Shown here: positions 638 through 59,491 of the stretch, piece after piece
Position numbering within the stretch: position 1 is the stretch's first letter
Layout: the number at the start of each line of letters is the position of its first letter
Notes under the pieces: generated by a model
The model's database searches: none
Told to the model about the DNA's origin: nothing
The model's input: the letters and a program-made list of their open reading frames with translations, nothing else
Assembly (NCBI GenBank): GCA_951813565.1
Contig: OX638351.1
Location: forward strand, 5,120,001-5,184,000
Direction: 5' to 3'
DNA from: an uncultured Poribacteria bacterium
Lineage (GTDB): Bacteria > Poribacteria > WGA-4E > WGA-3G
DNA length: 64,000 nt
Translations under genes and position numbers: made by a program

Positions 638-845
638 AACGAGTTGTGCTAAATAACCATTTGTAGAACTTTATTTCACAAAAGAAAATGTTCGTAAGTC
701 ATTATCATATATTTATATGTTCTTCAGTCCCGACAAATGCCATAAGCGCATTTGGCGTTGATTTGGTAGGGACGATATGTTTATAGCATAAATGCAAATA
801 TATGTGAAAACCAACAAAACAAAATGTTAACTGGCACAAGTCGTT
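638..845. mobile_element. MITE-like element containing an interrupted REP
   Basis: Imperfect TIRs AACGAGTTGTGCTAAATAAC / GTTAACTGGCACAAGTCGTT; related end at ~22727-22745; internal REP 721-786. Confidence 0.5.
732..765 (+). mobile_element. 34-nt hairpin-CGTTGATT mini-element inserted in a REP
   Basis: Removing 732-765 restores TCTTCAGTCCCGTAGGGACGATATGTTTATAG, the reverse complement of the intact repeat at 22631-22662 (1 mismatch). Confidence 0.75.
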
Positions 846-881
846 TAAATAAATTGAACACATAGATAAGTTTTCTATTTT

Positions 882-2399
882 ATGACATCAAACAAAAAAA
901 GCATCCGTTTGTGGCCCCTATTCATCATCGTTATTCTCACCGTTTTAGCGTTCGGATTAGTGTGGTCATTGGATGCGGGTCATCGCCAAGACAAAGTGGC
1001 ACTAACGGTTTTACTACTCATCATAACGGTTTTTCTTAGTCTAGTATGGTTGTTATGCCTTTCCCGCTTGGCATGGCGAGTTAAATTCTTATCTTTTGGT
1101 GTCATCCTTTTGTGCATCGCTGCGTTTGTAACCCTATTCCGATTTGATGGGTTCAGTGGTGACCTTGCCCCGAAATTTGAGTGGCGGTGGCGGGCGGAAC
1201 CTGAGAGTTATGTGGCATTAGCCGAGGTGCAGACCACACCAGCTGCAGAACTTCAAACGGATTTTCCACAGTTCCTCGGACCGGACAGGAATGCTATAAT
1301 CACCAGTATAAAACTCAACACGGATTGGAAGAATAATCCGCCAGAATTAGTGTGGAAACAACCTATTGGTGCTGGATGGTCAGGTTTTGCTGTTGTAGAC
1401 AACGCTGCGATTACACAGGAACAAGAAGACGAATGGGAAAAGGTTGTCTGCTATGACTTACACAACGGCAAAGAAAAGTGGACACACAGAGATAGGGCAA
1501 GGTATTATACGGCACTTGGTCAACTCGGTCCACGGGCAACACCAACTATTGACGGTGACCTTGTCTATACTGTCGGAGGCACAGGTATCCTAAACTGTTT
1601 GGATTTTGAAACAGGTAAACAGATTTGGTCAACAAATATCTTTGAGGAAAACGGAGCAAACACGCCGCCTTGGGGCGTGAGTATTTCACCGCTTGTTCTT
1701 GATGAACTCGTTATTGTGAGTGCTGGTGGCGCGGTAGCTTATCACAAAGATACTGGCGATATTGCATGGACAGGACATAGACATCGGAGCGGATACAGTT
1801 CTCCCGTACTTCTAACCTTGGCAGGGACTGAGCAGGTTGTGTTATTTAACAACGGTCTTGTCACATCTCATGAACCTGCTACCGGCGAACTCCTATGGAA
1901 ACAGCCGTGGCCAGCCGTAGAATGTGCTGCACAACCGACCCCGCTTCCGGGAAATAAACTGCTCGTTTCTACCGCTTACGGTATCGGTGCTAAATTATTT
2001 CAGATTTCAAGAAGTAACCCATCACAAGAATTCAACGTTAATTTGCTATGGGAAACTACATACTTCAAAGCCAAATTCACTACGATAATTTATTACGAAG
2101 GCTATTTATACGGTCTTGATGATGGAATATTCGCTTGCATCAACCCTGCAGATGGGACGCGTCAGTGGAAACGCGGTCGTTATGGTCACGGACAGACAAT
2201 TTTAATATCAGATGTCTTGTTGGTGCTTACTGAATCTGGTGACATTATTCTTTTAGAACCGAATCCAGAGGCACATAAAGAACTTGCGCGATTCCCCGCG
2301 TTAGAAGGACAGACATGGAATAACCCGGCACTCGTTGGTAATTACCTGCTCGTTCGTAACAGTCGAGAAGCAGCCTGTTACCGGTTACCTATAAAATAA
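882..2399 (+). CDS. Membrane-anchored PQQ-binding-like (BamB-type) beta-propeller protein
   Basis: 3 N-terminal TM segments, FPQFLGPDRN motif, repeated GxxxW blade ends, GYSSP. Confidence 0.85.
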   Translation: MTSNKKSIRLWPLFIIVILTVLAFGLVWSLDAGHRQDKVALTVLLLIITVFLSLVWLLCLSRLAWRVKFLSFGVILLCIAAFVTLFRFDGFSGDLAPKFEWRWRAEPESYVALAEVQTTPAAELQTDFPQFLGPDRNAIITSIKLNTDWKNNPPELVWKQPIGAGWSGFAVVDNAAITQEQEDEWEKVVCYDLHNGKEKWTHRDRARYYTALGQLGPRATPTIDGDLVYTVGGTGILNCLDFETGKQIWSTNIFEENGANTPPWGVSISPLVLDELVIVSAGGAVAYHKDTGDIAWTGHRHRSGYSSPVLLTLAGTEQVVLFNNGLVTSHEPATGELLWKQPWPAVECAAQPTPLPGNKLLVSTAYGIGAKLFQISRSNPSQEFNVNLLWETTYFKAKFTTIIYYEGYLYGLDDGIFACINPADGTRQWKRGRYGHGQTILISDVLLVLTESGDIILLEPNPEAHKELARFPALEGQTWNNPALVGNYLLVRNSREAACYRLPIK

Positions 2400-2498
2400 A
2401 AAGGTTTCAGGTCAACAGCATCACGACAATACTTCAAAAGTTATTATACCCCACATTTATCGGGGACATTTTATATAAAAAGAGGAAGACAAATACTA

Positions 2499-57864: not shown

Positions 57865-58746
57865 ATGAAGGCATTAACCGATTCCCAAATTCATGACTTT
57901 AAGGAAAATGGCTATCTACTTATTGAAGACACACTCGCTCCGGATGATTTGAATCCGCTCATTACGGAGTTTGAAGAAATTGTAGATACAGGGGCATCAC
58001 AACTCTACGCAGACAGTGAGCTCAACTCCGAATTCAAAACGGAAGGTTTTGATACGCGATTAGCAAAAATCACTGAACAATCCCCCGTTGTGTTCCAAAA
58101 GGTGTTTAGTGGTGCACACACCGGACCTGCGCTCTTTGATCTACTCATCAATCCAAAACTACTTGATATTGCAGAGTCACTCGTTGGACCGGAGATAATG
58201 TGTCATCCGGCATATCGGGTTCGTCTAAAACTGCCAGAACATGACCGAACTCTTGTCCCGTGGCATCAAGATGCTGGCTATATGGAACCTAAATGTGATT
58301 CAGTTTTACAACTCACAATCTGGATTCCTCTGATTGATGCCACCGTAGAAAATGGCTGCCTTGAAGTTATTCCGCATGTGCATCGTGATGGTGTTTTCCG
58401 ACATCAACACTCAGAACGTTTTTATCTTGAAATACCGGATGATGCTTTGCCAGAAGTTGAACCGGTTGTCGTTCCTGTGAAGTTTGGCAGTGTCCTTTTG
58501 CTTACCAATCTAACACCGCACCGTTCCATTCCAAATGTTAGCAATCAGGTACGATGGAGCGTTGATTCACGCTATCAGGACGCTGCAAAACCGACTGGTT
58601 ATCAACCAGAAGCGGGTTTTCTGGCACGCAGTCAACTACATCCTAATGATGTTGTTACTACACCTGAAGAATTCAAGCGGGTTCGTGAAGAACATCAACC
58701 CGGTCCAGGTCCGAATAGATGGGCAAAGGAGAATAGTGATGCGTAA
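57865..58746 (+). CDS. PhyH-family dioxygenase
   Basis: PWHQD, NGCLEVIP, HRS.PN.S..VRWS.D.RY; paralog of 17959-18837. Confidence 0.9.
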   Translation: MKALTDSQIHDFKENGYLLIEDTLAPDDLNPLITEFEEIVDTGASQLYADSELNSEFKTEGFDTRLAKITEQSPVVFQKVFSGAHTGPALFDLLINPKLLDIAESLVGPEIMCHPAYRVRLKLPEHDRTLVPWHQDAGYMEPKCDSVLQLTIWIPLIDATVENGCLEVIPHVHRDGVFRHQHSERFYLEIPDDALPEVEPVVVPVKFGSVLLLTNLTPHRSIPNVSNQVRWSVDSRYQDAAKPTGYQPEAGFLARSQLHPNDVVTTPEEFKRVREEHQPGPGPNRWAKENSDA

Positions 58747-59230
58747 TTTCAATTGGTTATCTCCATTCTTTATCGTTCTTGTCTTACTTATGAGCGGTGC
58801 AAAACCTGCAACCGAAGTGCCGAAACCGAAAGACGTTGAACTCCACGGCAAAATCGTCTGTTTAGCGGAAGAGATGCACACGCATTATAAGGTTGAACTC
58901 TCTGGAGAACATGAACATCTGGACGGTGTCAAGACCAAGGATGGAAAATACTATACCTTTCTACGTACATCGTTATCCGAGGCGCTGTTTGTTGACAAAC
59001 GCCTGCACGAGAAAGATCTGATTATCAATGGTCGCGTCTTTCCGAAAACACAGTTGTTGGAGGTTACGCGTATTAGGTCAATTCGCGATGGTGTTGTACA
59101 TGAACTCTACTACTACTGTGATACGTGCTATATCCGCGCAGTTGCGCCGGGAAATTGTGATTGTTGTCAAGCACCAGTAGTTTTGATAGAAAGACCGCTA
59201 AATGTTGATTCCTTAATACCCTCCCCTTAA
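58739..59230 (+). CDS. Secreted hypothetical protein with C-terminal CxxC...CxCC
   Basis: Signal peptide; YYCDTC..PGNCDCC. Confidence 0.7.
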   Translation: MRNFNWLSPFFIVLVLLMSGAKPATEVPKPKDVELHGKIVCLAEEMHTHYKVELSGEHEHLDGVKTKDGKYYTFLRTSLSEALFVDKRLHEKDLIINGRVFPKTQLLEVTRIRSIRDGVVHELYYYCDTCYIRAVAPGNCDCCQAPVVLIERPLNVDSLIPSP

Positions 59231-59327
59231 TTCATTTGCATCTCGCCAAAAGTGCATGTTATAATAGCCATGAGTTCTTGTATAGCGTATTAACACGTCT
59301 CCGTCACCCAACGCTATCCATGACAAT

Positions 59328-59491
59328 CAGGACTTACGCAATTTTCTCGACTTTGCGGTAATTATGGCAAAATGGTGTAATTTTTAGCAAAATTCTGAAT
59401 TATCAGCACGTTTACAAAACGCCAAATCAAGAAATCAACGGTATGAACGCCATTTAGGCATTCCCCGCCTACCACTTGTGTGTAAGTCCTG
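59328..59491. mobile_element. CAGGACTTAC-ended MITE containing a REP interrupted by a 44-nt mini-element (59423-59466)
   Basis: CAGGACTTACGCA / TGTGTAAGTCCTG; removing the insert restores GTAGGCGCGTTTTGTAAACG (minus strand), cf. 525-548. Confidence 0.7.

Follow-up and report, generated by a model that had tools for sequence, protein, structure and literature searches.

Hairpin units in a poribacterial genome

The stretch of DNA analysed here (the window) comprises 64,000 nucleotides (nt) of contig OX638351.1 (positions 5,120,001 to 5,184,000; assembly GCA_951813565.1), from a 5.43-Mb genome of Ca. Poribacteria that is hereafter called G000. Several of its repetitive extragenic palindromes (REPs) carry copies of a protein-less unit of 33-36 bases, which is made up of a 7-9 bp stem, a four-base loop closed by a C-G pair, a bulged C, a fixed tail of seven bases (GTTGATT) and two variable bases. 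This unit family is a real ultrashort mobile element, akin to a known but unexplained kind of repeat, and its members are almost certainly mobile.

A preliminary description of the window, made from its letters alone, had listed seven copies of the unit, and a hairpin followed by the tail is present at all of them (Table 1). The tail itself occurs 18 times in the window, against 9.0 occurrences expected, and a count of at least 18 was reached in 0/100 shuffles. DNA folding gives z values of -2.3 for the copy at 732 and -4.0 for the copy at 13849, and of +1.0 for the decayed copy at 19849. Four excisions had been described as restoring REPs that are found intact elsewhere in the window. With the sequences compared by eye, three of them do so (721-786 minus 732-765, 30941/31051, and 59403-59472 minus 59423-59466), whereas 13831-13890 minus 13849-13882 shows only a looser, family-level match to 14410-14436, with an ambiguous junction register.

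The stretch from 30946 to 31050 is a nest of three levels, in which an outer 34-nt unit is broken at its loop by a second unit, the tail of which in turn holds a third. In the read contigs of one run, just one G separates 30985 from 31023, so that the 37 inserted bases (a C plus a 36-nt unit) replace one G. The interrupted class B tail left at 31023-31030 is the likely origin of the doubled tail seen in 44-nt variants. As for the copy at 14310, a relative (G006) has a related nested array with an identical right flank at the orthologous place.

Table 1. Units, interrupted REPs and empty REPs in the window (positions count from the first letter of the 64,000 nt)
Feature	Position	Strand	Remarks
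Intact class A unit, 34 nt (25-nt hairpin, 7-nt tail, TG end)	732..765	+	Clean insertion at C^G (the caret marks the junction); empty host 22631-22662 matches 31/32
Host REP interrupted by the 732-765 unit	721..786	+	Sequence comparison
Class A unit, CC end, within a REP	13849..13882	+	
Unit with bulged 27-nt hairpin, tail, GG end	14310..14345	+	
Decayed class A unit, TA end	19849..19882	+	Weak fold; junction not C^G
Outer class A unit, 5' half	30946..30959	+	Interrupted in the loop
Class B unit, hairpin	30960..30985	+	Inserted into the loop of the outer unit; tail remnant at 31023-31030
Second class B unit (30987-31022, TC end) with C at 30986	30986..31022	+	37 nt in all; uninterrupted copies have one G instead
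Tail remnant of the first class B unit	31023..31030	+	
Outer class A unit, 3' half	31031..31050	+	Host REP resumes at 31051; empty host 63908-63932 matches 25/25
Class B unit, 44 nt, doubled tail	59423..59466	-	Inserted in a REP, at C^G; 21/24 match to empty host 525-548
Empty copy of the 721-786 host REP	22631..22662	not assigned	
Empty REP, same family as the 13831-13890 host	14410..14436	not assigned	Loose match
Empty copy of the 30941/31051 host REP	63908..63932	+	
Empty relative of the 59403-59472 host REP	525..548	+	

Structure and folded strand of the unit

The hairpin and the tail are conserved in different ways. In hairpin-first matches the tail is exact in 292/304 cases, the third position of the loop is A in 263/273, and the bulged C follows the loop. 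Across 30 distinct variants, 93% of the stem cells are paired, compared with 20-45% in slid registers, figures that are inflated by the choice of these variants for their pairing. Compensatory changes on both sides were found in 6/10 stem pairs, and the covariation score was reached by 0/500 shuffles, in line with the co-varying stems and fixed tail of the preliminary description.

On the hairpin-then-tail strand, the mismatches tolerated in 71 distinct arm pairs are G.T rather than A.C (36 vs 17, p 0.013) and G.A rather than C.T (18 vs 2, p 0.0004). Because these would be mismatches of unstable kinds on the other strand, the asymmetry points to a folded strand that likely has the hairpin first and the tail last, and makes the reverse-strand reading proposed earlier, with a leader followed by the hairpin, the less likely of the two. 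REPs carry a fixed motif 5' of the stem, whereas the unit has the opposite layout of a hairpin and then a tail.

Copy number and distribution

When a unit is counted as intact if its tail is preceded by a 24-27-nt hairpin with at least 8/9 Watson-Crick pairs, G000 contains 403 such units, while eight control heptamers used in place of the tail give 0-3. Another 180 tails, which share one common arm end, are contributed by the bulged class B, and all classes together amount to 929 family tails in 475 clusters, so that the further genomic copies anticipated from the window do exist by the hundreds. Class A forms 315 arrays of 1-9 units each. The units of G000 are nested in REPs and in one another and are almost all intergenic: long open frames, which cover 83% of the genome, hold 5/402 units, none of them clearly within a real gene. 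Many filled sites are copies of a few composites, and much of the copy number probably stems from passive amplification along with the host REP. There is no significant replichore bias of the units in G000 (206 vs 179, p 0.19), where GC skew is weak.

The pattern was found in 75/99 other genomes of the same family and in 0/51 from other families, and the counts of pattern matches within the genus run from 2 (G001) to 459 (G000). Among 80 GTDB loci listed, 78 are titled Ca. Poribacteria, one, in the same context, comes from an uncultured bacterium, and one is a fortuitous match lacking a proper stem. The sequencing runs that contain the window include sponge metagenomes; no RNA dataset is among those listed, which has no bearing on expression. 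G001, a genus member almost devoid of units, has no Y1/RAYT match and three matches to one GTAG REP pattern; it carries about 109 copies of an unrelated AT-rich repeat (L193-L204), and its 109 reversed-pattern matches were rejected as units since they belong to that repeat.

A sister family, with no member in the window, has the same kind of 25-nt hairpin and a six-base tail that differs at its start. It gives 94 matches in G000, including a few palindromic double counts and one chance match, is confined almost entirely to the interior of main-family units, where some 4-5 bases of the host arm appear to have been replaced. Palindromic forms with one hairpin and a tail on both sides, at times with a mirrored flank as well, were also seen (L011, L102, L105 and L148; 13 cases in G000), which suggests fold-back synthesis or recombination within the arms.

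Junctions and host sites

Excision of a TG-ended unit together with its TG restores a 16-mer present elsewhere in G000 in 181/212 cases, arrays included. Among the distinct targets of these units, C at -1 and G at +1 are each found in 122/132, whereas the figures for -2 and -3 are just 85/132 and 78/132. The 247 units of the non-TG kind end in CA, CC, CG, TA, CT and a few others; they keep the C at -1 (116/130), and their +1 base is variable and coupled to the two end bases, TG going with G and CA mostly with C. The 5' flank depends on the target, being mostly CCC (233/403), or is formed by a preceding unit. The junctions had been described as always C^G, with no target duplication. They are indeed non-random and C^G for TG-ended units, and no duplication was seen, but C^G is not an invariant rule of the family: the copy at 19849 is followed by A, and units with CA, CG, CC or TA ends lie at other junctions, often with the loss of a few target bases.

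The 322 distinct filled sites were narrowed to those with an empty form present three or more times in G000, which fall into 69 host families. Insertion was clean and after a C in 38 of these, 5 were artefacts of broken arrays, and 26 showed the loss or replacement of up to 4 target bases, most often T, TA or TC, with three of the TA cases equally readable as clean 33-nt insertions. The base after the unit usually matches the target. Taken from these alignments, the simplest rule is probably that a host L-x-R becomes L-C-unit-nn-R, the C being supplied by the element. Clean insertions lie mostly at C^G, and a CT site of a REP is the target in several cases. RAYT loci in relatives are flanked by the very REPs that host units. 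Three other kinds of junction were considered and rejected by inspection: an integron attC (the junction not being at the GTT), a two-base target duplication and a fixed-stagger recombinase exchange, the last since the net insertion of class A ranges from 32 to 34.

Presence and absence between strains

Of 128 metagenome loci compared with G000, 94 gave alignments at no less than 97% that cover 80% of the locus. Locus L366 differs from G000 by one 34-nt CA-ended unit, at C^C, that is present only in G000, and by one 35-nt unit present only in L366, where a single position of the alignment is mismatched, namely the one preceding this unit, which is T in the empty form and C in the filled one. 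L321 is identical to G000 except that an array is without its first unit, of 34 nt, and L353 and L359 differ by one internal array unit, a difference that could have arisen through slippage. In L111, from another species, a unit occupies a site that is empty in G000 (+33 nt, T replaced by C), and in G006 (L033) a different nested insertion, in the opposite orientation, lies at another C^G of the host REP of the 13849 copy. At the single-unit indels the homology between ends is at most one base.

Empty-site alleles, one of the checks suggested beforehand, thus occur as exact presence or absence of single units at near-identical metagenome loci (L366, L321). The insertions that distinguish near-identical strains are apparently recent, and the element is probably still active. 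The idea of a tiny non-autonomous element that parasitises other repeats is upheld by its hundreds of copies, its many independent host sites and these empty alleles.

A candidate pathway for mobilization

It is possible, with a likelihood somewhat short of even, that the units are moved as single-stranded DNA, in a cut-and-patch manner, by a HUH nicking enzyme of the RAYT type acting in trans. A RAYT-type enzyme is suggested because the targets are RAYT substrates, the junctions follow a C as do the cuts of TnpA-REP, and the model for bacterial interspersed mosaic elements (BIMEs) permits different cut sites and trimming by the host (as outlined in PMC3333891). According to passages of PMC8266576, TnpA-REP cuts after C, at CT, at CA and, with a GTGG guide, at CC, and its phosphotyrosine link is resolved by an oligonucleotide with a 3'-OH. 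We infer the recognition, cutting and joining of the unit as follows. The hairpin-then-tail strand would fold once single-stranded and be recognised, and cuts would follow immediately before the upstream C and two bases past the tail. The 5' end would then be accepted by a target hairpin nicked after C or CC, and the 3' end would be joined with the loss of a few target bases at some sites, aided by 1-3 bases of microhomology. Finally, every insertion would regenerate a CC-C^G site at its left edge, so that head-to-tail stacks would be formed.

The search for a mobilising enzyme bears directly on this pathway. The ten Y1 loci of G000, of which five are IS605-type, two IS200-like and three RAYT, each have their own ends or REPs. 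Five of them (L001-L005) we take to be IS605-type TnpA loci; four of these five have a TnpB-like gene, the left end of L001 is truncated beside another transposase-like open reading frame (ORF), L005 is interrupted by another element, and no likeness of the unit to the ends of the five elements was seen by inspection. Within the genus, Y1 matches are present in 36/40 genomes and matches to a RAYT model in 35/40; in favour of the pathway, G001, with hardly any units, lacks both. None of the 14 largest unit clusters lies beside a recognisable Y1 gene, the neighbours being judged by eye from their N-terminal sequence.

Several observations weigh against a RAYT-type HUH enzyme and against the insertions as read here. 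The unit has no 5' guide tetranucleotide of the kind used by characterised Y1 enzymes, and conservative HUH strand transfer alone does not give the loss of target bases. A home-built profile of 78 Y1 proteins revealed no further Y1 locus in G000, and none of the 10 loci of this genome, nor of 29 + 20 loci of relatives, is a Y1/RAYT locus flanked by the unit as its own repeat, units being absent or only inside host REPs. Moreover, G023 (one contig, 92% complete) and G010 have 57 and 30 unit matches, respectively, and neither has a Y1/RAYT match. The HUH/Y1 mobiliser of the preliminary description remains plausible, but the unit-flanked Y1/HUH gene that should accompany it did not appear among the loci inspected in G000 and its relatives. 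On the side of the insertions, no empty allele was found at 13849 in the contigs of four runs, nor at 19849 in at least three runs; the strain polymorphisms are known from metagenome contigs and could be explained by gene conversion with paralogues or by misassembly; and the 69 host families are not independent.

Alternative sources of the units

Somewhat unlikely is a dedicated enzyme outside the HUH group, lost from or never resident in most genomes, such as a phage-borne recombinase or a Ssn-like GIY-YIG single-strand nuclease cutting a few bases from the hairpin motif, after which host repair would paste the fragment. No Y1 gene tracks the unit, and the right end falls two bases after the fixed tail irrespective of their identity, much as SsnA cuts within variable flank, a few nucleotides upstream of its hairpin (as described in parts of PMC11893778). 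On the other hand, the three GIY-YIG matches of G000 are all in frames of 265-627 amino acids (aa), and the 11 loci of relatives with small GIY-YIG frames have no hairpin repeats of the unit family among the inverted repeats listed, in a search that used the Pfam GIY-YIG model only and that a divergent Ssn may escape. As to recombinases and phages, IS110 was found in 0/5 genomes (its control positive in 6/14), and IMG/VR gave no match for two exact patterns of the unit. IS91-type Y2 transposases were likewise found in 0/5 genomes, with a control that was silent as well.

The units may also represent a distinct class of single-hairpin mobile DNA, an idea that we regard as likewise somewhat unlikely. 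Here a 35-base strand would bring its own upstream C and two terminal bases, pick targets partly by pairing of these terminal bases and overwrite a few target bases, behaving as a hyperparasite that patches itself into REP nicks, either with no gene of its own or with an undescribed enzyme family.

Distinctly less likely is an enzyme-free origin similar to SPDIR (illegitimate recombination of the double, short-patch kind; 10.1101/2024.07.02.601687), in which unit-bearing single-stranded fragments would pair by microhomology in replication forks and be spread through gene conversion, slippage and REP amplification. The host families with lost or replaced target bases (26/69), the usual match of the base after the unit to the target, the copying of many filled sites from a few composites and the variation of array length between strains (L353, L359) would all agree with such a process. 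However, SPDIR products are described as varying in size and sequence, whereas the units are constant in their ends and polarity, have an unpaired tail that hardly varies and occupy dozens of distinct host sites, and the end homology of single-unit indels does not exceed one base.

A bacterial RNA resembling a short interspersed element (SINE) is still a little more doubtful. In this case a 34-base transcript would be reverse-transcribed at a nick, with priming by microhomology, and small target deletions would result. Tolerance of G.U-type and G.A mismatches on one strand, a mild bias of the units to the mRNA-sense strand (132 vs 95, p 0.017) and the microhomology and deletions at the junctions are compatible with it. 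Nevertheless, reverse transcriptase (RT) matches occur in just 18/40 genomes of the genus and in none of G006, G012, G048 and G017, which carry 114-420 unit matches, and Rfam has no match at the gathering score in the window. G000 itself has two RT genes (L225/L227 and L226/L435), in frames of 465 and 515 aa. In G055 (L421), three small ORFs, one of them with a GIY-YIG match, precede a similar RT, possibly as part of a defence locus.

Finally, non-mobile regulatory hairpins under selection, either terminators or binding sites, would suit the intergenic location and the T-rich tail after the hairpin, but they are highly improbable for repeats that interrupt one another as well as other repeats, lie either way round with respect to genes, show no conservation of orthologous positions and vary within a species, and the exact empty alleles contradict them.

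Relation to known families of repeats

The small dispersed repeats (SDRs) of Elhai et al. 2008 are reportedly about 21-27 nt long, with a predicted structure and no target duplication. Likened by description only, those of Nostoc seem the nearest precedent in kind. Like the unit, SDR1-8 of the Nostocaceae are very short and mobile, insert precisely at a specific site (SDR5 into HIP1) and have an enzyme that is not known, at least in the consulted excerpts of PMC5861425 and PMC4390886. They differ in belonging to another phylum, whereas the unit has RAYT-type REPs and other units as targets, a fixed 3' tail plus two variable bases, and frequent replacement of target bases.

With the GTAG REPs, BIMEs and REPINs mobilised by RAYTs, as portrayed in portions of PMC8266576, PMC3333891, PMC3116915 and PMC6006769, the unit shares intergenic hairpins of 20-50 nt in hundreds of copies, a stem with a bulge, folding that is specific to one strand, junctions that follow a C, and arrangement in tandem. 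In contrast to them, it has no GTAG/GTGG guide 5' of the stem and no cognate RAYT locus, a single hairpin rather than a doublet moves, and REPs are its targets. The earlier statement that the unit is not a GTAG REP was therefore right: no GTAG/GTGG is found at the 5' foot of the hairpin, and the other strand shows the complement of the tail there.

PATEs are miniature derivatives of IS200/IS605 elements, with a hairpin in each of their left and right ends, and are related to a TnpA-encoding element. In comparison with the ends of IS200/IS605 and PATEs, which also lack a target duplication, the hairpin of the unit and its approximately nine unpaired bases to the 3' end resemble a right end (for the IS608/ISDra2 mechanism, see the accounts in PMC3333891 and PMC6006769). 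In contrast, the unit has one hairpin only, no fixed target tetranucleotide or 5' guide, and junction bases that are lost at many sites. The CGTC-tagged REPs and the dRS3/NTS/SRM repeats cut by Ssn have in common with it a stem of 8-9 bp, unpaired oriented flanks, a cut in the variable flank a few bases from the motif and, as far as the excerpts of PMC3733652 and PMC11893778 go, no associated transposase. However, the unit has no 5' CGTC tag, its tail differs from the CCA-type, and no small GIY-YIG gene was found in G000 or beside units in the relatives inspected. Over about nine bases, the class B stem (for example, window positions 30987-31013) looks like the middle of a CGTC/NTS doublet in head-to-head arrangement, which may be a coincidence.

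Miniature inverted-repeat transposable elements (MITEs) have terminal inverted repeats and a target-site duplication, unlike the asymmetric ends and missing duplication of the unit. Altogether, the unit does not show the features that define the catalogued REP, PATE or MITE families, CGTC repeats included, and no description of such a repeat in Poribacteria was found in the titles and abstracts of the literature searched, a body of text with most subscription journals outside its scope and supplements excluded.

Implications

The dissemination of REPs has been called poorly understood (PMC8266576), and the spread of 20-40-base hairpin repeats in bacterial genomes is unsettled, no transposase being known for CGTC repeats or SDRs. 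With its exact ends, a strand that is probably the active one, a junction rule that includes base replacement, and insertions that seem recent, the unit family lends itself directly to testing a few candidate enzymes for cleavage and strand transfer. In vivo work is limited since the host, a sponge symbiont, is uncultured. The insertion of a unit of 34 bases in one fixed polarity could indicate a minimal chemistry for the insertion of single-stranded DNA.

Other features of the window

The minus strand of the window holds eight consecutive ORFs of 662-776 aa between 33517 and 50149. At about 14387-14486, a 92-nt module with inverted ends carries a REP and belongs to a set of at least seven near-identical copies, others of which lie in G000 at about 1.6958 Mb and 4.5476 Mb. 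This module is missing from the same-species loci L303 and L377, and further intergenic modules of 109-380 nt are likewise polymorphic between strains. Both the 92-nt and the 109-380-nt modules look MITE-like and active.

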